A DNA stretch of 64,000 bases, from positions 13,731 through 77,730 of IMG/VR virus record IMGVR_UViG_3300014205_000015; one strand, given 5' to 3'. This DNA comes from a virus (taxonomy: Duplodnaviria > Caudoviricetes). The notes beneath the pieces are model-generated. The model was given only the letters and a program-made list of their open reading frames with translations. It did no database searches and was not told the origin of the DNA. Shown one piece after another: positions 9,891 through 47,851 of the stretch. Positions within the stretch are counted from its first letter, which is position 1. Every line of letters begins with the position of its first letter. The position numbers and the translations under genes were made by a program.

Positions 9891-9964
9891 GGAGTCGGTA
9901 GCTCAGGGGTAGAGCAGCGGGGCATGTAATCCGCGGTTGATGGTTCGAATCCGTCCCGATTCCA
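9891..9964 (+). tRNA. atypical tRNA (Thr-UGU-like, 8-nt anticodon loop)
   Basis: GGAGTCGG/CCGATTCC acceptor, GCTC/GAGC D arm, GCGGG/TCCGC anticodon stem with loop GCATGTAA, GATGG-TTCGAAT-CCGTC T arm. Confidence 0.75.
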
Positions 9965-13789: not shown

Positions 13790-14260
13790 ATGAGCGAACG
13801 ATGGGACAATCATTTCTTGCGATTGTGTCAGGACCATGCAAGGATGTCGAAAGACCCAAGCACACGAGTTGGCGCTGTAATAGTCGGACCTGACGGGGAA
13901 ATTAGGTCGGCTGGATTCAACGGTTTCCCACGCGGAATTCTCGATAGCGACGAACGCCTGAACGACCGAGACACAAAGCTAAAGCTGATGGTCCACGGGG
14001 AAATGAACGCGATTTTAGCAGCTGCGAGAGTTGGGACGCCGGTGAAGGGATGCACGCTGTACCTCGCGGCTACTGATTCATCGGGGATTGTGTGGGGCGG
14101 TCCTCCGTGTGTGCGCTGTACAGTTGAAGTAATTCAGGCAGGCATAACAGAAGTGGTGTCTTACCCCAAACGCAGTGTTCCATCAAAATGGCATGAGGAT
14201 TTGGCAATGGCTGAAACTCTTTTACGTGAAGCGGGGATTGGTTACAGATGCGTCGATTAG
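13790..14260 (+). CDS. dCMP deaminase (cytidine/deoxycytidylate deaminase family)
   Basis: SKDPSTRVGAVIV, HGEMNAI, PCVRC zinc-binding motifs. Confidence 0.92.
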   Translation: MSERWDNHFLRLCQDHARMSKDPSTRVGAVIVGPDGEIRSAGFNGFPRGILDSDERLNDRDTKLKLMVHGEMNAILAAARVGTPVKGCTLYLAATDSSGIVWGGPPCVRCTVEVIQAGITEVVSYPKRSVPSKWHEDLAMAETLLREAGIGYRCVD

Positions 14261-14547: not shown

Positions 14548-14927
14548 GCCAAGCCGACGAATACATCCAGGAAGCACTGGAGCTAGCAGAGGACAATGCT
14601 GGTGACCGCTGCCCGCTGTCGTCCGATGCGTGTGGTGCATACTTCGAGCAGATACGGGACTTGTTACGGAAGGTGAGCGAAAACGCCGGACAGAACGTGA
14701 GCCAAGCCGATTCCGAGGAAATGCACACTGCCCTAGAGCAGATAGCAGCGCTAGCCCATCATGGTGGACTGATAGGATTCTCGGACGTAGACAAGTGCCT
14801 GAGAGAAGTACGGCGGATTTCGTTGAAGTGGTGGGACAAGAGCGAGTGTGCTAGGCTGCAAGAGGAAATAGACGCAGTTCCACCAGGGTTTTCAGATTCT
14901 TCGCACTTTCCTATTGACCCACAGTAG
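14544..14927 (+). CDS. hypothetical protein
   Basis: 127-aa ORF, ATGA overlap. Confidence 0.6.
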   Translation: MSQADEYIQEALELAEDNAGDRCPLSSDACGAYFEQIRDLLRKVSENAGQNVSQADSEEMHTALEQIAALAHHGGLIGFSDVDKCLREVRRISLKWWDKSECARLQEEIDAVPPGFSDSSHFPIDPQ

Positions 14928-14942
14928 CAAGCTGTATAAAGT
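14914..14942 (+). promoter_or_regulatory. sigma70-like promoter for the RAMP/array operon (TTGACC-17 nt-TAAAGT)
   Basis: Shares TTGACCCA and AGCAAG with the 12452 promoter. Confidence 0.55.
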
Positions 14943-14949
14943 ATTAAGT

Positions 14950-15018
14950 GTTGGCTCCCGGAAAAGACTCAACAATACAAACCGTCGATTTACTGTGCGT
15001 TTCTTTCCGGGAGCCAAC
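14950..15018 (+). repeat. 15-bp perfect inverted repeat in the leader
   Basis: GTTGGCTCCCGGAAA at 14950-14964 and TTTCCGGGAGCCAAC at 15004-15018. Confidence 0.85.
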
Positions 15019-15053
15019 GCAGTGATTCGGCGGTTTTTTATTGGAGTGATGCG

Positions 15054-15539
15054 ATGGCTATTGTTGAAAAAGCAAGAGTGAAATGGGCAGATAAAGAGGC
15101 GGCAATTCGGTCGCTCGAGTCTGGCGGTAAAATCGACCCACTGGATTTGATTGAAGCCGCTCGCGATCCTGAACATCCGTGTCACTCTGATTTCACTTGG
15201 GACATCGACCAAGCGGCTGCCGAACGGTGGCGGGATCAAGCCCGTGAGTTGATTCGCTCGTGCAAGTTTGAAGTGCGAGTGGAAGACGTAGGCAGCAGGG
15301 TTTGCATGTACGTTCCATCTGGCGACGAAGATGCAACATTCGTGTCACTACCAAAGATTCGCAGCAAGGCTCAGGCGTCTGCGGTTGTTCTAGCGGAGGT
15401 TGCCATGTTGCTTGGGAATGCTTCTCGGGCATACGGGATAGCGTTGTCGAAAACGAACATTGTTGGCGCTGACGTTGTTGTTCAGTTGAAAGCGATTCGC
15501 GAACTGGTGGCTACGCTGAAGGCTGAGCTAGAGGATTGA
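15054..15539 (+). CDS. partner protein of the RAMP/array locus
   Basis: LIEAARDPEHPCHSDFTWDIDQAAAERWRDQARELIR motif; lies immediately upstream of array 1. Confidence 0.8.
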   Translation: MAIVEKARVKWADKEAAIRSLESGGKIDPLDLIEAARDPEHPCHSDFTWDIDQAAAERWRDQARELIRSCKFEVRVEDVGSRVCMYVPSGDEDATFVSLPKIRSKAQASAVVLAEVAMLLGNASRAYGIALSKTNIVGADVVVQLKAIRELVATLKAELED

Positions 15540-15545
15540 TTCATT

Positions 15546-15863
15546 GGTCAAGGAATGTCGGGGCGTGGTTCGGCGTGGTGTTTCAGGTTTCGGTATGCTT
15601 GGGCGGTCATGGAGAGGTCGGGCTAGGTGCGCTCTTGCGAGTCGAGTCGAGGCGGTCGAGTCCGTGCGGGGTGCGGAGTGCTCTGGTTGGGTCGGTCCAG
15701 GTTGGGTTCGGCGGTCGCGGTTAGGAATGGCGTGCTGCGGCGAGTCGGGGCTCGTTCCGGTTGGGCGGTCAAAGTGGGTCAAGGCTTGGTGCGAAGTGGT
15801 GCGTCCTGGAAAGGCGGTCGAGGCGGGGATTGGAGTGGCCCGTATTGGTCCGACAAGGCGGTC
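15546..15863 (+). repeat. pentamer-coded array 1: six units of GGTC+(NN-GGY-like)x8-11; putative guide RNAs
   Basis: Units start at 15546, 15605, 15654, 15713, 15767 and 15816; lengths 59, 49, 59, 54, 49, 44 (all 5n+4). Confidence 0.9.
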
Positions 15864-15951
15864 AGAGAGAGAAGGTTTTTGGTTTGGAGAGTGTTTCTCC
15901 AGACTCCTACACAACAGGGGTGTTTCACCCCGCAATTAAGGAGAAGCCATT

Positions 15952-16716
15952 ATGGCAAAAGCATCTGGTGTTTTGGAAGCGATTGAAGTTGAACCACTAC
16001 GAGTTGGCAGTATGCAAGTCTGGCTGCGTGGTATCACGCCGCTGATCTGTAATCGATTGGCGGCAAAGGCACGGCGCGAGCTGTTGCTTCCGAAGGGACG
16101 AAAGTCGACGGCGGAAAAGCAGCAATCGCTGAAGCATGATCCGGTAGCTGAGTTCCGAGACAGCATGAATGTGCGATCTGGTGTTGGACCTACACGAGTA
16201 GTGTTTCCTGCGCCCGCAGTGAAGGGTTCTATGGCTACTGCCGCGCTGGAGACGAAAGGCACGAACAAAACGCAGATTGGTCGTTTGGTTCGTGTGGCTG
16301 GTTATTCACTGGATGTCTACGGAATACCAGAATTATTCATGGCTATTGTTCGTTCGGCGGACATGGCTCGGACGCCCGACGTTCGGACGCGAGCGATCTT
16401 GCGCGAGTGGTGCATGCCTGTTACCGTTCAGTACGTCAAGCCGCAGATGTCTGAGCAGGCTATTATGCAATTGCTTGCCAACGGCGGAATTATCATCGGA
16501 GTAGGTGATTTTCGTCAAGAAAAAGGCAAAGGCGATTTTGGCTGCTACGAGGTCGTCACCGAAGCCGATTGTAAGGACATTATCAAAAATGGCGGGTTGA
16601 AGCAGCAAGACGCTGCGATCAAGACTCCCGTCTGCTTCGACAGTGACACTGAAGAACTTTTAGGCTGGTTCCAACAGGAAGTTAAAGTTAGAGGAAAGGG
16701 AGAACTGGTTGCCTAA
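15952..16716 (+). CDS. RAMP/Cas7-like RNA-binding protein (Vipr-like effector)
   Basis: N-terminal VWLRGITPLICN strand and C-terminal Gly-rich loop GIIIGVGDFRQEKGKGDFGCYEV; flanked by pentamer arrays. Confidence 0.75.
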   Translation: MAKASGVLEAIEVEPLRVGSMQVWLRGITPLICNRLAAKARRELLLPKGRKSTAEKQQSLKHDPVAEFRDSMNVRSGVGPTRVVFPAPAVKGSMATAALETKGTNKTQIGRLVRVAGYSLDVYGIPELFMAIVRSADMARTPDVRTRAILREWCMPVTVQYVKPQMSEQAIMQLLANGGIIIGVGDFRQEKGKGDFGCYEVVTEADCKDIIKNGGLKQQDAAIKTPVCFDSDTEELLGWFQQEVKVRGKGELVA

Positions 16717-16725
16717 CTGTCAATT

Positions 16726-17376
16726 GGTCGCGGAGAGGTATGGCAACATAAGTCACGGTCCGGCGAGTCATGTCCGGGCGGTCATGGAATGGTTGGGCAC
16801 GGCACCATATGGTATGTCGCGGCTTGGCGTGGCGGTCCCGGTTGGGTCCGGTAAAGCTGGTCGGGGCGGGGTGTTGCGAGCCCGGGTTTGGCGGTCGGGG
16901 TACGGTTCGGCACGGCGGGTCGGAGCATGGAATGTTGCGGCGGTCGCGTCGAGGTGCGGTGCGTTTGGGCGAGTCCAGGCGCGTCGGGGTATGGTTGGGC
17001 GGTCGAGGTGAGGAAAGGCTGCGCTAGTTCAGGCGAGTCATGGCACTGGCGGTCGCGGTATGTCCTGACTAGTCATGTGAGGAAAGGCGAGGCGGGGCGG
17101 TCGAGTCGGGTCTTGGAGAGGTTCGGTCCGTTGCGGTCTGTCCGGGCGGTTTGTCAAAGCTAGGCTGCGCGTGGCGGTCATGGTGACGAGAGGCTGGGTA
17201 TGGTACGTCGCGGCGGGTCTGGGGCCGGTGAGGCGGTCAAGATTCGTCAGGTCGCGGACAGGCGGGGCGGGGTACGCTTAGGCGGGCCTAGTCCTGGCGG
17301 TCGCGTCGGGGTCTGGAGTGGCACGGTCGGGCAAGGTGAGTCGAGCTCTGGCGTGGTGAGTATCGGCAAGCCGGTC
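16726..17376 (+). repeat. pentamer-coded array 2: twelve units of GGTC+(NN-GGY-like)n; putative guide RNAs
   Basis: Units start at 16726, 16780, 16834, 16893, 16942, 17001, 17051, 17099, 17148, 17176, 17235 and 17299; three units (17001, 17051, 17148) carry 1-nt irregularities. Confidence 0.9.
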
Positions 17377-17415
17377 GTGATTGACTGTTAAGAGGTCATG
17401 CAGCACAATTGCTGC

Positions 17416-19329
17416 ATGACCTCTCCTTTTTTTGATTTAGTCCCAAAAGACCCAATTGAGAATCTCCGTTGGCGCATTCGTTGCCGCGAGCGTGCATTGG
17501 CTGATAAGCGGTTTCGAGACTCGCTATATCAAGCGTGCATGAGTGATCTTTGTTTCTGGATGGCATTTGCCTGTTGGGGATACGACCCGCGAGCCCGCTT
17601 CAAGATCGTTCCATTTGTACCCTATCCACATCAACAAGCTGTGTTCGTGGCGATGGATGAAGCCATAAGCACTGCCGAACGTGAAGAACGATCGGTCGAC
17701 GTGATCCTGGACAAAAGTCGGGCTCAAGGTGGATCTTTTGGATATCTTTGGGTCGACCTTCGGCGCTGGCTGCGCGATCCAATGTTTTCAGCAGGTTTTG
17801 TTACGAAAAATGAAGATTCGATTGATTCAAAGAGCGACTCATCGACGGTGCTGTGGAAAGTGGCATGGGCGATTGAGCGATTGCCTTTCTGGATGAAGCC
17901 CAATTACGAACGGCATCTTGGTCAGCACACTTTCATTAACAACGACAACGGTTCGTTATTGCGAGGATACTCTGCAGGGCAAGACGTGGCAGCCGGTGGC
18001 CGTACGACTGTGTTCACAGTGGACGAAGCTGGCGCGAGAGACTTCGTTTCAGGTGGCAAAGACGAAGCGGTTCAGGAGTCTATTCAAGACGTGTCCAACT
18101 GCATTCGCATGGTCTCTGCTCGTTACGTGGATGCAGGTGTCTTTCACGAAGCCTGCGAAAACCCAGACACGAAAAAGAACGGTATTCATCTTATACTGGA
18201 CTGGAAAGACCACCCCGCTCAAAGCAAGCACTCTTACATTGTGCGAGAGGGAATCGCGGTTGCCATAAAGCCGGAAGATCAAGCGGCGGTCACGGAATAC
18301 CACCGAAAACACCCTGACCTGCGATCCCGACTGGAAAGAAAAGGATTTAAATTTGAAGTGGTTGTTCGCAGTCCGTGGTACGACTCTCGATGTTTGCGCC
18401 CGACAGCCACCCCGCGACTGATAGCTTCGCAGCTCGACCGCAACCCTCGCGGAGCAGTAGGTAAAGTTTTCGCATCAGACCTCTTGGACCGCATGAAGCG
18501 AGAGCACTGCAAGGGTCCAGTTTGGGTGGGCAATCCAGTATTTGACTCAGAAACCTGCAAACTAACGGGATTGATTCCCAGGGATGACGGCTTGCTGAAA
18601 CTGTGGTTCAAGCCGGGCATCGACAACTCACCGCCGCTGGGACCGTTCACCGCGGGATGCGACATCGCTTCGGGTGGAGTTGGGGCGTATTCCTCAAACT
18701 CGGTCATAACGGCGCTGGACGACAGAACCGGGGAGCAAGTCTTGGAGTACACGGTCAAGGGACTCGAGCCACGACCGTTTGCACGCCGGGTGGTTGGGCT
18801 GTGCATGTGGCTTAGAAACGCACTGCTTGGCTGGGAGGATTCCGGGGTGTCTGGTGGTTTTGCTAAGGAAATCATGGAAGTTCTTTATTATGGTTCCGTG
18901 TTCTATCGGGACGTAAACCAGCTCGGTTCCCAGAAGAAAAGCCGCAAGCCTGGCTGGCCGTGCCGTGACGCAGACAAAGCGGACGATTTTGAGCAAATGG
19001 CGCTGGCGATGGAGACTGGGAAGTTCGTTCCGCGTTCCGAGGAAATGATTGTCGAGTGTTCTGAATATGAGTGGGACGGCACCAAAATCATTCACGCACC
19101 GTCGAAAAACAAGGGGGCGGCTGACAAGAATCACGCCGACCGCGCTATAGCAATGGCAGGCTGTTGGAAGGTCTTTAGCACCGATAATGCAACCCGTAAG
19201 ATTGACACAGACGTGGAAAACGGTCAGAATCCAGAGTACGGCTCGTTTTTATGGCGAGAGCAGCAAGAGCGCCGGAACGTGAAAACGGGTAGCCCGAAGT
19301 TCGGGATTAGGGACATTATTGGACGCTAA
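17416..19329 (+). CDS. terL: terminase large subunit
   Basis: DKSRAQGGS Walker A-like, VDEAG Walker B, GCDIASG and HADRAIA RNase H-fold acidic motifs; lies upstream of portal and capsid. Confidence 0.9.
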   Translation: MTSPFFDLVPKDPIENLRWRIRCRERALADKRFRDSLYQACMSDLCFWMAFACWGYDPRARFKIVPFVPYPHQQAVFVAMDEAISTAEREERSVDVILDKSRAQGGSFGYLWVDLRRWLRDPMFSAGFVTKNEDSIDSKSDSSTVLWKVAWAIERLPFWMKPNYERHLGQHTFINNDNGSLLRGYSAGQDVAAGGRTTVFTVDEAGARDFVSGGKDEAVQESIQDVSNCIRMVSARYVDAGVFHEACENPDTKKNGIHLILDWKDHPAQSKHSYIVREGIAVAIKPEDQAAVTEYHRKHPDLRSRLERKGFKFEVVVRSPWYDSRCLRPTATPRLIASQLDRNPRGAVGKVFASDLLDRMKREHCKGPVWVGNPVFDSETCKLTGLIPRDDGLLKLWFKPGIDNSPPLGPFTAGCDIASGGVGAYSSNSVITALDDRTGEQVLEYTVKGLEPRPFARRVVGLCMWLRNALLGWEDSGVSGGFAKEIMEVLYYGSVFYRDVNQLGSQKKSRKPGWPCRDADKADDFEQMALAMETGKFVPRSEEMIVECSEYEWDGTKIIHAPSKNKGAADKNHADRAIAMAGCWKVFSTDNATRKIDTDVENGQNPEYGSFLWREQQERRNVKTGSPKFGIRDIIGR

Positions 19330-38402: not shown

Positions 38403-39800
38403 ATGCCAATAACATTCAGACACCAAGCAGCCGGGGTAGTACCTCCTTCCAATGAGACTACTAGGAAGTATGGGCAGTCGCTTGTCTTACAGCAGCAGCA
38501 ACAGAAGTATGCCGGTCAACAAGCAGGATACGACCGATTGTTCCGAGCTGGTTCGCAGCTGCAGCAGCAGGACTGGCAGATGGGCAGGGATAAGGCGCAG
38601 AACGACTTCCAGTTGGGCAGGGACAAGCAGCAGTTCGATTGGAAGCAGCAAGAGGCGGAAGCGGCTAGGCAGCAAGGGTTTCTCGACGAGGCTAGGAAAC
38701 AGAGCAGCCGATTCATTCTTGACGCGATTGACAAAGGGGAGTTTGACCCTGGTACTGCCCGAGAGCTACGGCAGAATCTGGTAGCCGAGTCAGAGGTGCT
38801 AGGCAATCCGCGACTGGACGCCACGCAGAGAGCCGAAGCGATTCAGAAGCTTCGTGCGCAGCGGTCAATGCTGTTAGCCAATCGCGCTCCAAAGGCACCA
38901 GAGCCAACACCACAGGAACAATTCGACCAGGGTGTTGTTACAGGTCCAGATGGCGCAAAGTATCGTCGTAACTCAAAGGGAGACTTCGAGCCTCTACCAG
39001 TACAACCTCAGCAACCAGCACCACCAGCGACCGCTGATGATGCGTTTAAGGCTGACCCTAAACTGAGGAAACAGTACATTGATGACGCGGTAAACGTACT
39101 CACAGAAGGCGGAACGAAGTCGCTTACTGTCGATATTCGCAAGCAAGCCGCCGAACTGGCAAGGGAACTGTACGACAACGACAACCCGCAACCAGCACAG
39201 ACGCCAGCTACCACACCTGCTGCTGGGCAAGCCCCACCCGCTGCATCAGGAGCCTTTTCGCCATTACTGAGTGCGATTCAGGGTGCTGCGGCTGGAATAA
39301 CGGGGCAGACCCCTGCTACTATTGGGCAGTCAGCGGACATACCAATAGCATCTCCAGATCCAGGCCGACCGCCAGCACCATCGACAATGCCCGCGCAAAA
39401 CCAGTGGGCGGACGTGGCAACACCACCGCCACCGGCACAAGTTTCGCCATCGCCACCACTGAGTTCGCCTGCCGGAGCGAGTCCACAGCAGGCTCCAGCT
39501 ACATCGCAAAGCGGACTACCACAAGCTGAAAAGCCAGACTTTGGCGCTATGGTAGCCAGTGCAAAGGACGATGCAGACAGAGCGTTCGTCAGCAAGATGC
39601 AAGGTGTGTACGAGGGGCAGTCGCCTGCTATTCAGTCTGCAATAAGTGTCCTTATGAGCCCAGACTCGCTTGACGAGGATGCTGCACGCGCTCTTGCGTA
39701 TCTAAAGGAAAATGGCATTGATATTGACCAACTGGCTGCGACTCCGAAGCTACCGAAGAAGAAAAGCAACAGGGATTGGCAGAGCGGAAAGGGAATGTAG
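38403..39800 (+). CDS. putative internal virion protein (Gln/Pro/Ala-rich)
   Basis: Precedes the giant protein; low-complexity helical sequence. Confidence 0.65.
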   Translation: MPITFRHQAAGVVPPSNETTRKYGQSLVLQQQQQKYAGQQAGYDRLFRAGSQLQQQDWQMGRDKAQNDFQLGRDKQQFDWKQQEAEAARQQGFLDEARKQSSRFILDAIDKGEFDPGTARELRQNLVAESEVLGNPRLDATQRAEAIQKLRAQRSMLLANRAPKAPEPTPQEQFDQGVVTGPDGAKYRRNSKGDFEPLPVQPQQPAPPATADDAFKADPKLRKQYIDDAVNVLTEGGTKSLTVDIRKQAAELARELYDNDNPQPAQTPATTPAAGQAPPAASGAFSPLLSAIQGAAAGITGQTPATIGQSADIPIASPDPGRPPAPSTMPAQNQWADVATPPPPAQVSPSPPLSSPAGASPQQAPATSQSGLPQAEKPDFGAMVASAKDDADRAFVSKMQGVYEGQSPAIQSAISVLMSPDSLDEDAARALAYLKENGIDIDQLAATPKLPKKKSNRDWQSGKGM

Positions 39801-39802
39801 CT

Positions 39803-42800
39803 ATGGGAACGATAACTGACAGAATAAGACGACTTGGCAGGCAGGATGCAGCCCCAAGTGAGGATGGCGCAGGTATTGGTCAAATCGATGAACGCGAGCA
39901 AGCTATTATCGACAGGTATACAAGTGCAGCGCCAGGCGTGAGCTTCTTGCAAAAAGCTGCCCGTGGGTCGGCTAAATTAGAAATAGATACTCGGCGACAG
40001 CAGCGAGCCTACGCCGAGAAACCAACGTCACCGCTCGCAGCTATAACGGTGGATCCAGCCAGGGAGATGGTTGCGAATCTTGGGGACCGAGCAAAGGTGC
40101 TCGACACCTACCGTAAGCTGTCACCTGAGCAGCGCCAGGAAGCATTGAGTTTGGCTCCTGGTATTGCACAGCAGTTAGGCGATGACCGAGGCGGAGTAGT
40201 TGGGCGTACTCTCGGCGCAGTAAGTCGTGGGATAAGTCATGGCGTATCGCAGCCACTCGCAGAGTTAGTTGGACTAGGCGGAACGCCAGAGGAGATTGAG
40301 TACATTCGCCAATTGGATGCGGCAGCGTCTCAAGAGTTTAGTCCTGCCCGTCCAGGCGACCCGTGGTATGAGCGTGGACCGCTACAAGCCGTGGAGATGG
40401 CTCCGTGGATGGCAACAGTGGTAGGCGGCGCTGGCGTAGGGCGTGCTGCGGCTACGGGGATTGCTGGGCGGCTTGGCATGGCAGCCCGTGGCACAGCGGC
40501 AGCCGCGAAGACTGGAGAGCTTGCGGGTATCACCACGGCAGCATTCCCCGGTCAGTACGCGCAAGAGGTGGACCAGCTTAAAGAACTGGGCATGGAAGAC
40601 GGGACGAACCTGCGCCTGCTTGCTGGCGGGACAGCGGCAATTGCTGGTCTTATTGAGGGAATCGTACCCAATCCGTTCAAGGCTGGACCCGTTCCGTTGA
40701 CCGAAGGGGCTGTTAAGGCTGCCCGTCAGTACCTCTGGGAAGCAGCTAAGAGGGCTCCTGGGGAAATGTCTGAAGAATACCTACAGGGCGTTACAAGCGG
40801 TCTGGGCAGCCATGTAGCGCAATACCTCGATGAGAATGCTGAGGATAGGTCAATCGCAGACGCATTCCAGACAGGCTGGGAACAAGCCAAAGAAGCAGCG
40901 CTACCAATGGCGTTCCTGCTTGGTGTTCCTGCTGTCGGCGGTGCTGGGCTATCGGCAGCGCGAGCACGGCGATTGACTCGTTTGCAAGAGGTTCTTGCTA
41001 AGGGACCAGTTTCCAGGAAAGCCGGTCGGGAACTTGGCATTGAAGGCAACCAGGATGAACGCACGGCGATAGCTGCCGCAGAGAAGGCACAGCTAGAGCA
41101 AGAAGCAGCTCAGGTCAGCGCAACACCACCACTAACACAGGGACCAACAGATGCCAGCCAAGTACCAGCGGATGAAGCACGCAATGATGTCCAAGGGGAT
41201 GGAGGAGAAGGAAGCCAAGTCGATAGCGGCAGCGAAGTATATCAGCCAGGGCAAGAGCAAGGAGTCTCGCAGCCAGAGAGCAAAGAGCCTGAAGCACAGG
41301 AAGTACAAGTAGCGCCATGGCAACAGACTCCCAGTGAATACGTTGCCGGCGAGACGGACGCAGATGCGGTAGCTGTCAGGAGGGCATCACACCCACAAGC
41401 TGTGAAGCGAGCGCTAACGGAAGGAGAGCAGGTTCCGCGTGCAGTGCTAGATGCTTATGCGAACAACACTTGGGCGAAGAAGGCTATCGAGCGGCTGTAT
41501 CCTAACGAGCCAGGGCAGTTACCTACAGAGCCAGAAGCAGCAGCCACTCCCCCAGTCGCTCCAGCTACAGAAGTATCGCAACAACCATCGGAGGGGTCAG
41601 TGTCCACAATTGTGGACAAAGCCGAGAAACTACCAGTACCAGCCACACCAGAGCAGGCAGAGCCAGCAGCAGTCCCAGGAAGTCGGTTTGCAGGCAAGTC
41701 TGATAAGGAACTAGCTTCTATTCAGCAAATGTACGAAGACAACATCAAGACTAAAAAAGCCAAGAATGAGAAAGTCTCGCCTGAATGGGAGCGAGGGCTT
41801 GATGAAGTCAGAGCATTACGGGCTGGAGCGGATCCACAAACAGAAATAGTGACGGATACTAGCGTCTATGGGCATCCACAAAACCCGTCGTCGCGAGAGG
41901 GGCACCAAAATCTAATCCCAATCAAATTTGGCGCTGATGCAGACTTAGCGTGGCGATGGGACGAGATTCAAAAGCGAGCAGCCGTTCTGATGGCTGAGAT
42001 AGGTGATGCGCAAAACCGGGCGTTGCGTGGCAAGACACCAGCGATACGCAAGAAGGCTTCTGACGAATTAAAGTCAGCTAATCATTCGGACAAGGAACAG
42101 GAACTCAAAGACCTGAAGGAAGCCCAGGCGTATCTCAATGAACTGAGTAAGAAACAGAGTGGACTAACTAAAAAGCAAGCAGTAGAGACAGGAAAGCCGT
42201 CGACGGCTGGGCTTTCGGAGGAAGTAATCGGTTCCCCGCCCGTTAGTCCCGACGCACTGGGGGAAACCCCAGAGACGAGTATGGGCAAAGCGGTAGGTAA
42301 TGAACTGCCCTCCGAAGCCCGCGCCGAGGAAACTGAGCCGCAGCAGCCTGACTCCAAGTGGCAGTCCGAAACCAGAACACTCCTAGAGGCTGTCCCAGCA
42401 CTCAAGGGCGCCAATGTCGAACCAGACGAGAAGGCTGGAACGGTCAAGGTAACACGCCCAGACGGGCTCTCTACGACGATTCACTTCAATGCCGATAAAG
42501 AACTGGCAGAAGCGGCTAAGTCGAAACTGCGCAATCCTGAGTCGATTCACGGCTGGTATGTACGGAAGCCAGGAGAAGCCGAGGGACGCATCTACGTGCG
42601 CTCCGACGCCAACCACAGCAACATCCTTAACCATGAAGTAATGCACTGGCTTGAAGATGAAGGTGTTGTAACCAAAGAGGAAGTCGAGAAGTACGGCGGA
42701 CGGGAAGCAATTGCCGAGAAGTACGGCAAATGGGCTGAGCTAAAGAAGCGGAAAAAGGATTCAGTGTTCCAGCGAATCTACGACACGCTAGAGCCAGTGT

Positions 42801-45800
42801 TCTCAGCACAGCGCAGATTCTTTGAGGATGTGTCTAAGCGGCAAGCAGCCGAGAAACCGTCCGAGAAGCGCCGTGGTCCTAAAGACCAGCCAGGGGCACG
42901 AAGGATGGAGCCCACGGAAGAAGGTCGACCTGCGGATGGAAAGCCGATAATGCCAGGGGACCGTTTCTTGACCAATACAGGTCGCGAAACAACGCCATAC
43001 CCCAAGTACAGCGGCGCTACGAATCGCCAAGTAATCAATGCTGAGAAGAAGTCACAGCTATGGCTGATTGAGAATGCTATCGCTGAGGCTGAGTCTCGCG
43101 GTGACGACTTCAACCTCACGACATTCCGAGGTGAGCTTGAGGATGCACGCAAAGGAAAACTCCCTCCAGCGTCAAAGGACTCTGCGACCCTCTACGTGTT
43201 TGGAGAGGACATCCCAAAGGTTCCTAAACCATTCCTGAAGGAGCCAGGGGCAAAACCACTTTCGTCCGCAACGGAACAGGCTCGGGAGAACCTTCGCAGG
43301 CGAGGTAAACGCAAGCCATCCCAGGCGGAACTGGACGCAGAAACAGCATCGGTGATTCGTGAGCGAGAGGCAGACAACAAGGTTCGTCAGGACTTCCAGT
43401 CGGACAGGGATGCCCAAAAAGCACAGGAAGCAAGGCGTGAGTTCGTCGGAAAGCAAAAGGCTGCTGCGAACCCAGCTACCGTCGATTCGCTCGGTTATGG
43501 CGACATCGCTCAGGTGAACGATGACATCGAACGCGGACGGGTGAGCTACGAAGACGCAATCAAAGTAGCAGACGCATTCGTGGAAGCGGGTTATCTTCCA
43601 CAGCTTCGTCGCGACCAGATCCGTAAGCCTACCCAAGCCAGTGCAAATCAAGTTAACGTCGATTCTGGCTCAGAAAGTAAAGTTAAGCCAGCAGAAGACC
43701 GTGTGAAAAATTTTACACAAGACTTACCTAGCTTAACACCGGAAGGGAAGGCTACTGGGAAACAAGTAGGGAACAAGCCAAAGCCAAAGCCAGAGCTAGC
43801 ACCTGACACGGCACGTATTCAGGCTGAGCGGGAAGCAAGGGAGCAAGCCAAGGCAGGGAAGAAACAGCGAGTGGCTCCAGAAGGGTACGCTGCGCTACCA
43901 GAGATGACTCGCGCAAAGTTCGAAACAGCATGGGATGGAAGCGACCAGCAAGCGATGAAGGACCTACTTCATTTGCCCAATAAGTCTCTGAGAGCTGAGT
44001 TCGAGCGGCGCACAGAACGCAAGCTACCGCGAACCATCAAGGGCACGTCAGAAGTTGTCGAGCAGGTTTATGCTGCGCGAGCCAAGCCAAGTGAAGCGGT
44101 AGGAGTGGAAGCGGAACCGAAAAACGAAGAAACACAGCCCGCCCCCGTTTCTGTCAAAGCCGACTTCATAGAGCTTAAAGGTCAGAACGCGACTGGAGTG
44201 AAGCAAACGATTCGGGTAATCGCTGGAGAACGCACGTTACTGATGGAACGCAGTAAGCACGACAGCGAGTGGTCGATTAGGGAAGGGACAAAGTACACCG
44301 GCGCAATCAAAGGCAAAACACCAGTAAAGACAGGCGGTGAAATCCTCGCTAGTGGGATTGGCGAAACCAAAAGAGCAAAGGAAGTCGCACAGCAGATTAT
44401 CGACGGCACTTTCGACAAGGACGCTGATAGTCTGTTTGTGCGAGAGGACACAAGAAACATTGGACTCCCTAATGCTAAGCTTGCCGCCGCAATAAAAGAT
44501 TACCAGATAGCAAGGCGAGGCAGTTTCGCCAAGTTGCTTCGTGAGGAAAGACTGTACACCGATGGTCGTTTGCTGATGAAAGTGAACGACAAGGACCGAG
44601 ACGCGATTCTGAAGGGGATTGGAGAGACTGACGAAGGCAGGGAGATGGGTGTCGTTGCGCAAATGATGGTCGACGGCAAGAAGGCGCTAAGTCGCTCAGC
44701 TAACGCCATGAAACCAATCGGATACCGTGGAGGCAACCTAACAACACGAACCGTTGTGCTTCAAAGCCAAGATGGCGATGCTGTAACCCTCGACAAGTCT
44801 TTACACGACACGGTTCTGAAAAAGCACCCCGACGCAGTGCCGTACTTCAGGGAAGAAGGTCGTCCGGTGTCCTACGCCAGTAACGACGACGTGGTGGCGA
44901 TTGTGATGCCGATGAACATGGACAAGCCAGACGCCAAATTAAAGGAGTTGGTGGCTGGTAAGTATGACTTCGAGGCTGAAGCCGCCGTAGAGGACGAGAC
45001 TGGCGATGGAGAGGGTGGCGCTGAGTTCGGGAAGGACGTTGGGTCGACGCTGGGAATCACGTCAGGCGTTCCGCTGGCTGGTCCACACCGAGGAATGGGG
45101 CGTTCTGTGCGGCATTTCTTCCAGCGGTTCTTTACCTCTCAGGGAGAACTTCCAGCTGACGTGTATGATGCAAAGGTACGGAAGGAAGGGCGGGCTGCCA
45201 AGGAAATGAACCGTCTTCGGAATCGCGCAACTGACCTCCGGCGTGGCATCAAGAAAGCCTTGAACGGCAGGGAATTGACTCAGGCAGATATCGAGAGAAT
45301 GAACGCCGTGCTTCGCGGAGAGAAGGCTATGACCACTGTGCCGGTAGCAGTACGCGCACCACTCAAAGCGATGCGAGACCACATTGATTCCCTATCAAGC
45401 CACTTGATTCTGGAAGGCGTGGCGCAAGGCGACTTAGTGGGAATCATCACGGAAAGCATGGGCGTCTATGCCACCCGGTCATATCGCGTATTCGACAACC
45501 CCAAGTGGCGCGACCAAGTTCCTAGTGCTGTTCGCAATCGTGCAGTAGCCGCTATTCGGGCGCTCGACCCATCCAAGTCTGACGCTGAGGTAGCAGGAAT
45601 CCTAGAATCGCTACTGTTCCGCGGTGCAGCAGATACCCCCGTGGCACTTCTGAAGGGTTCGAAGCTGGGAAGCAAGGACTTGAGCACGTTCATAGCACGA
45701 AAAGACATTCCGGAGTGGCTTCGGGACTTGTGGGGGGAGTACAAGGATGCTGGTGTGAATTACGCTCGCAGCGTGTTCAAGATGGCGCACTTGCTTGCCA

Positions 45801-47851
45801 ATCAACAGTTCTTAAATGAGGTACGAGACGCTGGGCTAGGCAAATGGCTTCGCACGGACGAGGAAGGACCAATCATCAACGAGTATGGCGAAATCATCAC
45901 GCCTATCGCAGCCGAGAGCAGTTCTGTCATGGAACCTCTAAACGGACTGCTCACTACGCCAGAAATAAAGAAAGCATTCGAGCGTTTCGATTCTCCTGGT
46001 GCCATGCCGGAGTGGCTGCGGGTGATGATGTCGGTGAATTACGCAGTCAAATACGGAAAGACCGTAGGGTCGGTAATGACGCACGTTCGTAATACTGTCT
46101 CTAACGTAGGGTTCGCAGTAGCCAACGGGCACTGGCGGCTTAGTAAGGCTGGAAGGGCGGTGTGGGGCACAGCGACAGGAACATTCCAGCTTTCTGATGC
46201 AAAGTTCCGTGAATACTACAACCGACTCGCAGAACTGGGGATTGTTGGAGAAGACGTTCGAGCTGGCGAGCTAAAGGATGCGCTGCGGGACGCTTCGCAG
46301 GCAGATATCGACGAGTTCCTGTATAACCGCGAAGCGCGCCACGCAAAGAGGTTGGTCGGCATGGGGAGGGCTGGATTCAGGTTCCTAAACTCCCTATACC
46401 AAGCCGAGGATGGCGTTTGGAAAATCTACGCATGGGAGAACGAGAAGGCTCGCTACGCCAAGGCGTATCCAGGATGGTCGGAGCAGAAGGTTGAGGAGCA
46501 CGCAGCCAATATTGTCCGAAACACCTATCCGACATACAGCAAGATCCCTGAAGCGATTAAAGCGCTTCGTCGGTTCCCGTTAGTTGGTACGTTTGTCAGC
46601 TTCCCGTCTGAGGTGGTTCGAACGACGTTCCACACTGTCGCGCTGGGCGTTGAGGAGATGCAATCGCCGGAAACACGGGCTATTGGAGCGCAAAGACTGG
46701 CTGGTACAGTGATGTCCATTGGAATACTGTCTGTGTTATCCCGCGCCATGATGGCGATGTACGGTATTGATGATGACGAGGACGAGGACTTGAGGTGGTT
46801 TGTTCCTCCGTGGCAGGAGAATAGCCGATTCGTCTACCTTAACAAGCCGCAGGACGCCACGTTCCATTTTGTAGACTTGGGCTACTCCGACCCGCACGCA
46901 TACCTCACTGACTCCGTGGTTGCGTTCATGCGAGGTGGCGACTGGAAGGACAGGCTAGGGAAAGCTACTGCGGAATTCCTTAGTCCATTTGCGTCGGAAG
47001 AGATATTAGCAAAGGCTCTAATGGACCTACGCAGTAATGCTGGCGACAAGATTTACAACACAAGGGATGAGATTGGGGAGCAGGCTAAGGATATTGTTGC
47101 GCATCTGTGGACCAGTGCTCTGGAACCAGGGACCGTTTCATCGGTGCGTCGAATCGTAACAGCCATAGGAGGAACTGACCCATCCAAGAGCGTGCGGGAT
47201 GAAGTTTTAGCCGTCGCGACTGGGCAGCGACTACAGAAAGTCGATGTCGAGCATTCTCTTGGATTCCGTGCCAGGGACTTCGGTAAGACGCTGACTCAGA
47301 TTCAAGGTATTGCCCGCAAGACTGTCACCTCGCGCGGAACAGCCACCGGCGCAATGGTCGCAACTGACTTGGCCCGCATGGAGAGGCTGCGGCTTGCGGC
47401 GTTTTCGGAAATGCAGCAGATCGCTGGGGCAGCGAGACGACTGGGTGTACCAGAGGAGTCTATTCGGACGATGTTGACTGCGGAACTGCCGGACGATGTT
47501 GCGGAACAGTTGATGACGGGTGACTATTCATCCTACGAGATGACGCCCGAGACAGTGCGACAGATGATGGACGCGAAGCCGGAGGAATTTATGCAACGTT
47601 TCTCCGCATGGCACGGACAACGGACGCCAGAGGCGATACGGTCATACGTTGGCCAGAGGCTTGCAAATAGCGAGCCAGCTGATATTAAGGGCGAACTGGA
47701 TTTGCTGGGAATTACGCTTGAGGAGTGCAAGCAGGCACTGAAGGATTACTGGAAGTTTCGAGAGTGGCCGATAAGTGAAAAAGGCATAATGGTAGACGCT
47801 TTGCAGAAAAGGTTTCGGAAACTGGAGGCACTTTACAAAACCGAGAACTAA
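39803..47851 (+). CDS. giant (2682-aa) multi-domain internal virion / large polyvalent-type protein
   Basis: Size, position, N-terminal hydrophobic Ala/Gly helices, helical C-terminal region. Confidence 0.75.
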   Translation: MGTITDRIRRLGRQDAAPSEDGAGIGQIDEREQAIIDRYTSAAPGVSFLQKAARGSAKLEIDTRRQQRAYAEKPTSPLAAITVDPAREMVANLGDRAKVLDTYRKLSPEQRQEALSLAPGIAQQLGDDRGGVVGRTLGAVSRGISHGVSQPLAELVGLGGTPEEIEYIRQLDAAASQEFSPARPGDPWYERGPLQAVEMAPWMATVVGGAGVGRAAATGIAGRLGMAARGTAAAAKTGELAGITTAAFPGQYAQEVDQLKELGMEDGTNLRLLAGGTAAIAGLIEGIVPNPFKAGPVPLTEGAVKAARQYLWEAAKRAPGEMSEEYLQGVTSGLGSHVAQYLDENAEDRSIADAFQTGWEQAKEAALPMAFLLGVPAVGGAGLSAARARRLTRLQEVLAKGPVSRKAGRELGIEGNQDERTAIAAAEKAQLEQEAAQVSATPPLTQGPTDASQVPADEARNDVQGDGGEGSQVDSGSEVYQPGQEQGVSQPESKEPEAQEVQVAPWQQTPSEYVAGETDADAVAVRRASHPQAVKRALTEGEQVPRAVLDAYANNTWAKKAIERLYPNEPGQLPTEPEAAATPPVAPATEVSQQPSEGSVSTIVDKAEKLPVPATPEQAEPAAVPGSRFAGKSDKELASIQQMYEDNIKTKKAKNEKVSPEWERGLDEVRALRAGADPQTEIVTDTSVYGHPQNPSSREGHQNLIPIKFGADADLAWRWDEIQKRAAVLMAEIGDAQNRALRGKTPAIRKKASDELKSANHSDKEQELKDLKEAQAYLNELSKKQSGLTKKQAVETGKPSTAGLSEEVIGSPPVSPDALGETPETSMGKAVGNELPSEARAEETEPQQPDSKWQSETRTLLEAVPALKGANVEPDEKAGTVKVTRPDGLSTTIHFNADKELAEAAKSKLRNPESIHGWYVRKPGEAEGRIYVRSDANHSNILNHEVMHWLEDEGVVTKEEVEKYGGREAIAEKYGKWAELKKRKKDSVFQRIYDTLEPVFSAQRRFFEDVSKRQAAEKPSEKRRGPKDQPGARRMEPTEEGRPADGKPIMPGDRFLTNTGRETTPYPKYSGATNRQVINAEKKSQLWLIENAIAEAESRGDDFNLTTFRGELEDARKGKLPPASKDSATLYVFGEDIPKVPKPFLKEPGAKPLSSATEQARENLRRRGKRKPSQAELDAETASVIREREADNKVRQDFQSDRDAQKAQEARREFVGKQKAAANPATVDSLGYGDIAQVNDDIERGRVSYEDAIKVADAFVEAGYLPQLRRDQIRKPTQASANQVNVDSGSESKVKPAEDRVKNFTQDLPSLTPEGKATGKQVGNKPKPKPELAPDTARIQAEREAREQAKAGKKQRVAPEGYAALPEMTRAKFETAWDGSDQQAMKDLLHLPNKSLRAEFERRTERKLPRTIKGTSEVVEQVYAARAKPSEAVGVEAEPKNEETQPAPVSVKADFIELKGQNATGVKQTIRVIAGERTLLMERSKHDSEWSIREGTKYTGAIKGKTPVKTGGEILASGIGETKRAKEVAQQIIDGTFDKDADSLFVREDTRNIGLPNAKLAAAIKDYQIARRGSFAKLLREERLYTDGRLLMKVNDKDRDAILKGIGETDEGREMGVVAQMMVDGKKALSRSANAMKPIGYRGGNLTTRTVVLQSQDGDAVTLDKSLHDTVLKKHPDAVPYFREEGRPVSYASNDDVVAIVMPMNMDKPDAKLKELVAGKYDFEAEAAVEDETGDGEGGAEFGKDVGSTLGITSGVPLAGPHRGMGRSVRHFFQRFFTSQGELPADVYDAKVRKEGRAAKEMNRLRNRATDLRRGIKKALNGRELTQADIERMNAVLRGEKAMTTVPVAVRAPLKAMRDHIDSLSSHLILEGVAQGDLVGIITESMGVYATRSYRVFDNPKWRDQVPSAVRNRAVAAIRALDPSKSDAEVAGILESLLFRGAADTPVALLKGSKLGSKDLSTFIARKDIPEWLRDLWGEYKDAGVNYARSVFKMAHLLANQQFLNEVRDAGLGKWLRTDEEGPIINEYGEIITPIAAESSSVMEPLNGLLTTPEIKKAFERFDSPGAMPEWLRVMMSVNYAVKYGKTVGSVMTHVRNTVSNVGFAVANGHWRLSKAGRAVWGTATGTFQLSDAKFREYYNRLAELGIVGEDVRAGELKDALRDASQADIDEFLYNREARHAKRLVGMGRAGFRFLNSLYQAEDGVWKIYAWENEKARYAKAYPGWSEQKVEEHAANIVRNTYPTYSKIPEAIKALRRFPLVGTFVSFPSEVVRTTFHTVALGVEEMQSPETRAIGAQRLAGTVMSIGILSVLSRAMMAMYGIDDDEDEDLRWFVPPWQENSRFVYLNKPQDATFHFVDLGYSDPHAYLTDSVVAFMRGGDWKDRLGKATAEFLSPFASEEILAKALMDLRSNAGDKIYNTRDEIGEQAKDIVAHLWTSALEPGTVSSVRRIVTAIGGTDPSKSVRDEVLAVATGQRLQKVDVEHSLGFRARDFGKTLTQIQGIARKTVTSRGTATGAMVATDLARMERLRLAAFSEMQQIAGAARRLGVPEESIRTMLTAELPDDVAEQLMTGDYSSYEMTPETVRQMMDAKPEEFMQRFSAWHGQRTPEAIRSYVGQRLANSEPADIKGELDLLGITLEECKQALKDYWKFREWPISEKGIMVDALQKRFRKLEALYKTEN

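Follow-up and report, generated by a model that had tools for sequence, protein, structure and literature searches.

VIPR is a CRISPR-related, RNA-guided DNA silencer that was first described in two preprints of 2026 (10.64898/2026.04.26.720920; 10.64898/2026.04.26.720927). Its components are the RAMP protein Vipr, a vap accessory gene (vap1–6) and guide RNAs (vrRNAs) built of GGY/NN pentamers, and seven types are distinguished. Double-stranded DNA is read by the NN pairs of a guide, which skip one base, usually the wobble base, at each step; binding leads to transcriptional silencing of competing mobile elements (10.64898/2026.04.26.720920; 10.64898/2026.04.26.720927). Among the architectures described is a staggered one, in which successive guides abut with a one-base overlap (Fig. 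S18 legend of 10.64898/2026.04.26.720920). In this study, we analysed a stretch of 64 kb (the window) out of a 77.7-kb viral contig, IMG/VR record IMGVR_UViG_3300014205_000015. Positions 15054–17376 of the window very probably encode a phage VIPR system with two staggered vrRNA arrays. Five of its guides are decoded here, whereas no natural targets were given for the staggered architecture in the preprint (10.64898/2026.04.26.720920). A first-pass annotation of the window had named VIPR as a class of this kind to be compared. The class does exist in the literature and describes such a system; having been published in two preprints, it is not new.

The locus lies entirely on the + strand and consists of an accessory gene, a six-unit array, a 254-aa RAMP gene and a 12-unit array. 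This layout, with terL behind it, had been proposed in the first-pass annotation and agrees with the coordinates of the open reading frames (ORFs) and arrays, as follows.

14914–14942, + strand: sigma-70-like promoter candidate upstream of the operon (from a consensus scan only; 9 of 12 positions, 17-nt spacer)
15054–15539, + strand: vap-like accessory gene, 161 aa, phrog_15946 (PHROG assignment and linkage to vipr)
15544–15863, + strand: vrRNA array A, six staggered units of 8–11 pentamers each (phase segmentation)
15952–16716, + strand: vipr, encoding the 254-aa RAMP protein Vipr (homology and fold)
16724–17376, + strand: vrRNA array B, with 12 staggered units (from phase segmentation and parsing of the units)
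17391–17434, + strand: intrinsic terminator, a 15-bp stem followed by a T run, which closes the operon (terminator scan)
from 17398, + strand: terminase (terL) ORF, 643 aa, directly after array B and followed by the portal gene

As in the published staggered-array systems, a Vipr RAMP gene and a small accessory gene are accompanied by long GGY/NN pentamer arrays in a phage genome, with no CRISPR repeats and no other cas genes.

The assignment of the RAMP gene is based on homology and fold. The window Vipr is 74% identical over its full 254 aa to UniProt A0A0F9A1L0, one of the five founding Vipr proteins named in the methods of the first preprint (bioRxiv 10.64898/2026.04.26.720920). The PDB entry 36pp_D (`SUSP1 Vipr protein') was matched with an E value of 0.003 by the window protein alone and of 3.9e-8 by a profile of 84 homologues. 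In Vipr of the Escherichia phage SUSP1 the GGY bases are held by R138, D177, W178 and R179 (VIPR preprints; structures in 10.64898/2026.04.26.720927). The corresponding residues of the window protein are R147, D186, F187, which keeps the aromatic character, and R188; H17, E71/M72 and K33 of the SUSP1 protein could not be aligned by sequence. Across the 84 homologues G183, G185 and R188 are invariant, and D186 and R147 nearly so. Both marks of a Vipr protein, the homology and the GGY-binding residues, are present. An AlphaFold2 (AF2) model built from the 84 diverse homologues reached a pLDDT of 95.5 and replaced a first model from 29 close homologues (pLDDT 62). Its top matches in Foldseek and VIA were Csm3, Cmr4 and Cas7, with Cas7-11 also among the top folds. 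The fold search that the first-pass annotation had proposed for 15952–16716 thus returned the RAMP fold, and its RAMP/Cas7-like gene is upheld by this fold and by the homology to named Vipr proteins. Neither Pfam nor PADLOC gave a match for the window Vipr or the vap-like protein. The Vipr family comprises 1,482 close matches and 1,526 representatives at 50% identity.

The two arrays share a pentameric period. At lag 5, array B has a self-identity of 0.44, as against 0.31 in mononucleotide shuffles (z = 7.8). Array A, the more degenerate of the two, has 0.38 (z = 2.8 against shuffles). A phase-tracking Viterbi segmentation delimited 6 + 12 abutting runs, the same 18 units as counted in the first-pass annotation, and the pentamer phase shifts by −1 at every junction. 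Each unit has a GGTC start, 5–14 pentamers of the form NN-G-G/T-Y and an NNGGC end, so that the junctions read GGC|GGTC. This general form had been described earlier as GGTC followed by pentamers, and it is departed from in several places: B9 starts with GGTT and has only five pentamers, B6 holds one 6-mer, B7 slips by 1 nt internally and array A is degenerate. In the 176 pentamers parsed from the 18 units, positions 1 and 2 are hypervariable (entropy 1.9–2.0 bits), position 3 is G in 93% (0.5 bits), position 4 is G in 69% and T in 23%, and position 5 is C in 55%, T in 34% and A in 11%, i.e. C or T in 89%; the commonest triplets are GGC, GGT, GTC and GGA. The arrays far exceed the four tandem YNNGG/GGY-NN pentamers flanking vipr by which VIPR loci are recognized. 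The GGC|GGTC junction fits the published one-base overlap, because in the GGY-NN register one unit ends in GGC-GG and the next starts with GTC-NN, with one G common to both. We infer that this 4-nt junction would break the register of the protomers and thereby define the RNA ends.

No identical direct repeats were found in the locus: no exact repeat is longer than the junction motif, no repeat family exceeds 86% identity and the best matches (60–86%) are anchored on the 7-mer junction. The earlier statement that this is not CRISPR therefore stands, and the near-identical repeats, unique spacers and cas genes of a CRISPR-Cas locus are absent, with no PADLOC match for either protein. Rfam gave no family for the locus, and no comparable cluster of pentamer runs occurs elsewhere in the 77.7-kb genome on either strand. 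Even relatives with a Vipr that is 85–89% identical lack most of the guides.

The same anatomy recurs across the family, for which 80 related IMG/VR loci were compared. Pentamer runs on the same strand lie beside vipr in nearly all of them; in the close clade, the opposite strand has few such runs. Of 599 abutting junctions, 514 show the −1 phase shift, mostly as GGCGGTC or a clade-specific variant, in agreement with the Fig. S18 legend (10.64898/2026.04.26.720920). In 39 of the 80 loci vipr adjoins a homologue of the vap-like gene, which lies upstream in members of the close clade and downstream in distant loci; this gene also flanks vipr in the Gordonia phages UmaThurman and Pipp. The vap-like protein itself matched nothing in Pfam, PDB or PADLOC, received no function from the ESM Atlas and belongs to a PHROG of unknown function.

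For the target searches each unit was converted to the gapped form NNxNNx… and both strands were searched, with a match of at least 80% of the NN bases at a 1-nt skip as the threshold (taken from 10.64898/2026.04.26.720920). Among the 80 related loci, the best NN match at skips of 0, 1, 2 and 3 nt was 15, 20, 15 and 19 of 20 for guide B1, 16, 23, 17 and 22 of 24 for B11, and 19, 25, 19 and 20 of 28 for B12. The maxima for shuffled NN order in the same loci were 17, 18 and 21, respectively. At skip 1 all three guides exceed these maxima, and skips of 0 and 2 remain at the control level; the high values at skip 3 are attributed to similar guides in the arrays of relatives. In exact scans, five other guides with 20–22 specified bases gave no IMG/VR match, an empirical control which indicates that chance matches are rare. 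The gapped code proposed earlier, in which every third base is skipped at the wobble position, is borne out by five guides, all in frame with the skip on the wobble position: B1 (20/20), B3 (22/22), B4 (18/18), B11 (23/24) and B12 (25/28). Targets at or above 80% with a wobble skip and no self target at that level are the pattern described for VIPR. The decoded guides, and B8, which is partly supported, are the following.

16730–16779, + strand: guide B1, 10 NN, against vipr genes of other phages
16838–16892, + strand: guide B3, 11 NN, against the zinc ribbon of a phage primase-helicase
16897–16941, + strand: guide B4, 9 NN, against the patatin nucleophile-elbow motif, including CBASS CapV-type effectors
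17103–17147, + strand: guide B8, 9 NN, matching a tRNA-Sec-like gene of Planctomycetota at its T arm and 3' acceptor strand
17239–17298, + strand: guide B11, 12 NN, against the terL Walker A region of close relatives
17303–17372, + strand: guide B12, 14 NN, against close relatives' terL at a site 78 nt further downstream than that of B11

Guide B1 decodes to the ADINKTPDIR motif of other phages' vipr genes, and its NN match is 80% or better in 77 of the 80 related loci. For guide B3, IMG/VR contains 19 exact matches. Each is in frame at the motif PCPNCGGVDRF or PCPKCGGVDRF, and the ORFs concerned, about 650 aa long, carry Zn_Ribbon_Prim, Toprim and AAA_25. Exact targets of both B1 and B3 occur on two contigs, L090 and L099; the former, a phage fragment, also encodes an endolysin, a recombination module and a vipr of its own. 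For B4, 58 of 59 exact IMG/VR matches are in frame at the GTSTGG motif of patatin ORFs, which match PADLOC phospholipase effector models (E = 1e-105). One B4 target lies in a capV–cyclase–E2 operon beside a type I restriction system, and for at least eight there is a CD-NTase-like gene no more than 1 kb away. Guides directed at patatin are found in more than one clade: a distant VIPR locus (L057:4841), whose Vipr is 46% identical, carries a guide that matches B4 at 17 of 18 NN bases. Homologues of the primase-helicase and the patatin were not found in the phage's own genome. The two terL guides match close relatives, B11 at 23/24 in L002, L003 and L005, and B12 at 25/28 in L004 and L005. Near-copies of B11 and A6 are shared by the arrays of L006 and L007.

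The targeting of a tRNA-like gene of Planctomycetota by B8 has partial support. Its 24 exact matches in genome contigs are near the approximately 17 expected by chance, and the only ones of note are five homologous tRNA-like genes in planctomycete metagenome-assembled genomes (MAGs), with possibly two further tRNA-like matches. The RNA scores 31.7 bits against the Rfam tRNA-Sec model, below the gathering threshold. The gene (L187:5624-5710; also in L170, L179, L185 and L188) has a long variable arm and a UAU anticodon, and we take it to resemble the `allo-tRNA' kind of non-canonical tRNA. The five planctomycete genomes with a B8 match contain no Vipr homologue and no B4 site at up to one mismatch. 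Among 401 sampled genomes of Planctomycetota there was no close Vipr, and only two had a distant Vipr-like match.

Seven units of array B had been read as motifs in the first-pass annotation: B1, B3, B4, B11 and B12 stand, B8 stands in part, and the AlpA-like reading of B10 remains unverified because no exact B10 match was found in IMG/VR or metagenomes. Exact 1-nt-skip scans also gave no match in IMG/VR for A3, A4, B2 and B5, nor in metagenomes for A3.

The guides match self and non-self alleles to different degrees. The best self matches are the following, all on the + strand and obtained by self-scan.

16357–16386, + strand: site for guide B1 in the phage's own vipr, 15/20 NN
17713–17832, + strand: sites for guides B11 and B12 in the phage's own terL, 19/24 and 22/28 NN

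These matches of 75–79% are all below the published 80% line; the phage's own vipr and terL differ from the guides just enough to stay below the target match level. At the B1 site its own Vipr reads ADMARTPDVR in place of ADINKTPDIR. At the B11 site its own terL has the same Ser and Arg, encoded by AGT and CGG as against TCN and AGR in the guide. Such Ser and Arg codon-family switches are the only synonymous changes at the site that alter codon positions 1 and 2, and they look like escape from self-targeting. Conversely, guides of relatives match the terL of the window phage at 90–94% in the same region as its own B11 and B12 sites, and six relatives' guides reach at least 90% on the window genome compared with none after shuffling. 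In a matrix of guides against terL alleles (window, L002, L004, L006 and L008) self values range from 0.60 to 0.83 and off-diagonal values reach 1.00; for each of these phages, the anti-terL guides fit foreign alleles better than the self allele. These data are evidence for reciprocal, allele-specific targeting among related phages. The partial self matches might instead tune late-gene or packaging expression, the system then being a regulator of the phage's own genes. All three self matches keep the codon phase. No shuffled control scores as high as the self matches of B11 and B12, whose sites lie in the gene that directly follows array B. We nevertheless consider self-regulation quite improbable, given the better fit of B1 and B11 to relatives (up to 20/20 and 23/24) and of each phage's anti-terL guides to foreign alleles, the apparent codon-family escape at the B11 site, and the report that perturbed NN pairing abolished silencing and that no self match reached 80% (10.64898/2026.04.26.720920).

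Two further readings concern the nature of the target and of the arrays. The top fold matches Csm3, Cmr4 and Cas7-11 are backbones of RNA-targeting complexes, and the ribonucleoprotein might accordingly bind or cut transcripts and not DNA. The five guides against genes all run in the coding sense, and the tRNA-like match in the sense of the RNA, so none is complementary to a transcript; in this orientation the gene guides could pair with the template DNA strand and not with mRNA. SUSP1 VIPR, moreover, binds double-stranded DNA (VIPR preprints), and RNA targeting appears very improbable. Published VIPR targets lie on both strands (10.64898/2026.04.26.720920), against which the same sense in five of five guides is suggestive only. 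The notion that the G-rich arrays are not guides at all, being pac or terminase-binding repeats, a G-quadruplex tract or glycine-rich coding sequence, could draw on the position of array B against terL and on the several open frames that cross the arrays. It is barely credible: a period of five that shifts by −1 in each unit cannot be reconciled with coding sequence, the NN positions are at maximal entropy, and whole units spell motifs of foreign genes exactly. The arrays are also not a packaging feature, because they accompany vipr in the 80 related loci and terL adjoins the vipr locus in only nine of them.

Within the preferred assignment to VIPR, the window system can be compared with type II VIPR of phage SUSP1 and a P. 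fulva prophage, with which it shares the RAMP fold, the G-loop GxGD-aromatic-R and the thumb arginine, a 1-nt skip that falls on the wobble base, target sites within rival mobile elements (other VIPR systems among them), and the absence of self targets at 80%. It differs in that its Vipr is about 50 aa longer, with about 50 residues aligning by sequence, and in that position 4 of its pentamers is T in 23% (GTC). SUSP1 vrRNAs are about 100 nt long with 9–16 repeats and a conserved 3' pseudoknot tail, whereas the window units have 5–14 pentamers and no tail. Several observations weigh against the assignment or its mechanistic extension. The units lack the mark of type II, a conserved 3' tail of about 40 nt that contains a hairpin and a pseudoknot; since they abut and have only the 7-mer junction in common, the locus is not to be filed as type II. 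The similarity to SUSP1 Vipr, the only biochemically studied one, is confined to about 50 residues, so that the mechanism is carried over by inference. Small-RNA sequencing confirmed only the other two unusual architectures and not the staggered arrays (10.64898/2026.04.26.720920). Finally, ten of the 18 units (all six of array A, and B2, B5, B6 and B10) had no target in the scans made: for these, nothing scored above shuffled controls in mismatch-tolerant scans, which covered the phage's own genome, five related contigs in full, the 80 related loci and every target-bearing locus.

Compared with the Cas7 backbones of Class 1 systems (Csm3/Cmr4), Vipr has the same fold, one subunit per fixed RNA step and base flipping induced by the thumb. 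The step differs, being 5 nt with two pairing bases in the window system as opposed to 6 nt with five in Class 1 Cas7, and the locus lacks the repeat-spacer array, Cas6, Cas5, the large subunit and the adaptation genes of Class 1 CRISPR-Cas. Type IV CRISPR systems resemble VIPR in silencing without a nuclease and in acting in conflicts between mobile elements, in their case plasmid competition. Phage-borne CRISPR mini-arrays and anti-defence genes are likewise programmable or dedicated viral tools against competitors or, possibly, host immunity. In the window system both ends would be served by one guide array; it is the motif match of B4 that suggests a use against CBASS.

Homology, fold, array anatomy, target matches and self-avoidance were computed here; filament assembly, DNA binding and silencing in the window system would follow by analogy with the SUSP1 work. 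In the proposed mechanism, a single transcript would start at the promoter-like site near 14914 and stop at the terminator at 17391, and 18 short guide RNAs would come from its two arrays. Each Vipr protomer would bind one pentamer, sequester the G-G/T-Y triplet and present the NN pair, and the NN string would pair with one DNA strand while skipping every third target base, thereby repressing transcription of the target. The guides cover codon positions 1 and 2 of very conserved motifs, so that synonymous wobble changes would give no escape. The decoded repertoire points to rival vipr, terL and primase genes, patatin (CapV-type CBASS) effectors and possibly the tRNA-like gene.

Further features were noted in and around the locus. 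Downstream of the promoter-like site and ahead of vap there is a 12-bp inverted repeat (14953–14964 and 15004–15015, with a 39-nt loop) followed by a T run (region 14953–15036), a possible operon leader or attenuator. Two small hairpins with similar GTGTTTC-type loops (15880–15935), between the end of array A and the ribosome-binding site of vipr, could cap array A or serve in processing or attenuation. The terminator hairpin that closes the operon overlaps the terminase ORF (643 aa, from 17398) at its first two ATG codons. The neighbours of the locus are a deaminase, small ORFs without known function, terL and the portal gene; the dCMP/cytidine deaminase gene (13790–14260) is located just upstream of the operon. 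Elsewhere in the window, a single ORF of 2,691 aa (39776–47851, + strand) occupies the structural region, and a tRNA-like gene called by ARAGORN (9891–9964) has a four-base anticodon (atgt) in an 8-nt loop and may be a frameshift-suppressor-type tRNA or a false call.

The locus adds a decoded set of natural targets for the staggered architecture, which was left without RNA or target data in the preprint. Complementarity spans whole units from the first to the last pentamer, which supports the predicted guide boundaries. The guides are placed on the most conserved peptide motifs (Walker A, the zinc ribbon, the patatin GxSxG elbow and the thumb region of Vipr), so that one guide can cover a whole gene family whatever the wobble base. 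Mutually directed, allele-specific guides among related phages offer a testable model of self/non-self discrimination without a PAM. A tentative proposal, which may well prove wrong, is that guides of the staggered clade are double-purpose: relatives would aim at each other's vipr and terL alleles, with self-escape achieved partly by the Ser AGT/TCN and Arg CGG/AGR switches, and B4 would silence capV, the patatin effector of host CBASS. The exact spelling of the CapV catalytic motif by B4 makes the use of VIPR by phages against CBASS a testable idea. If it is true, RNA-guided transcriptional silencing would be a phage anti-defence tool, a use not reported in the VIPR papers.

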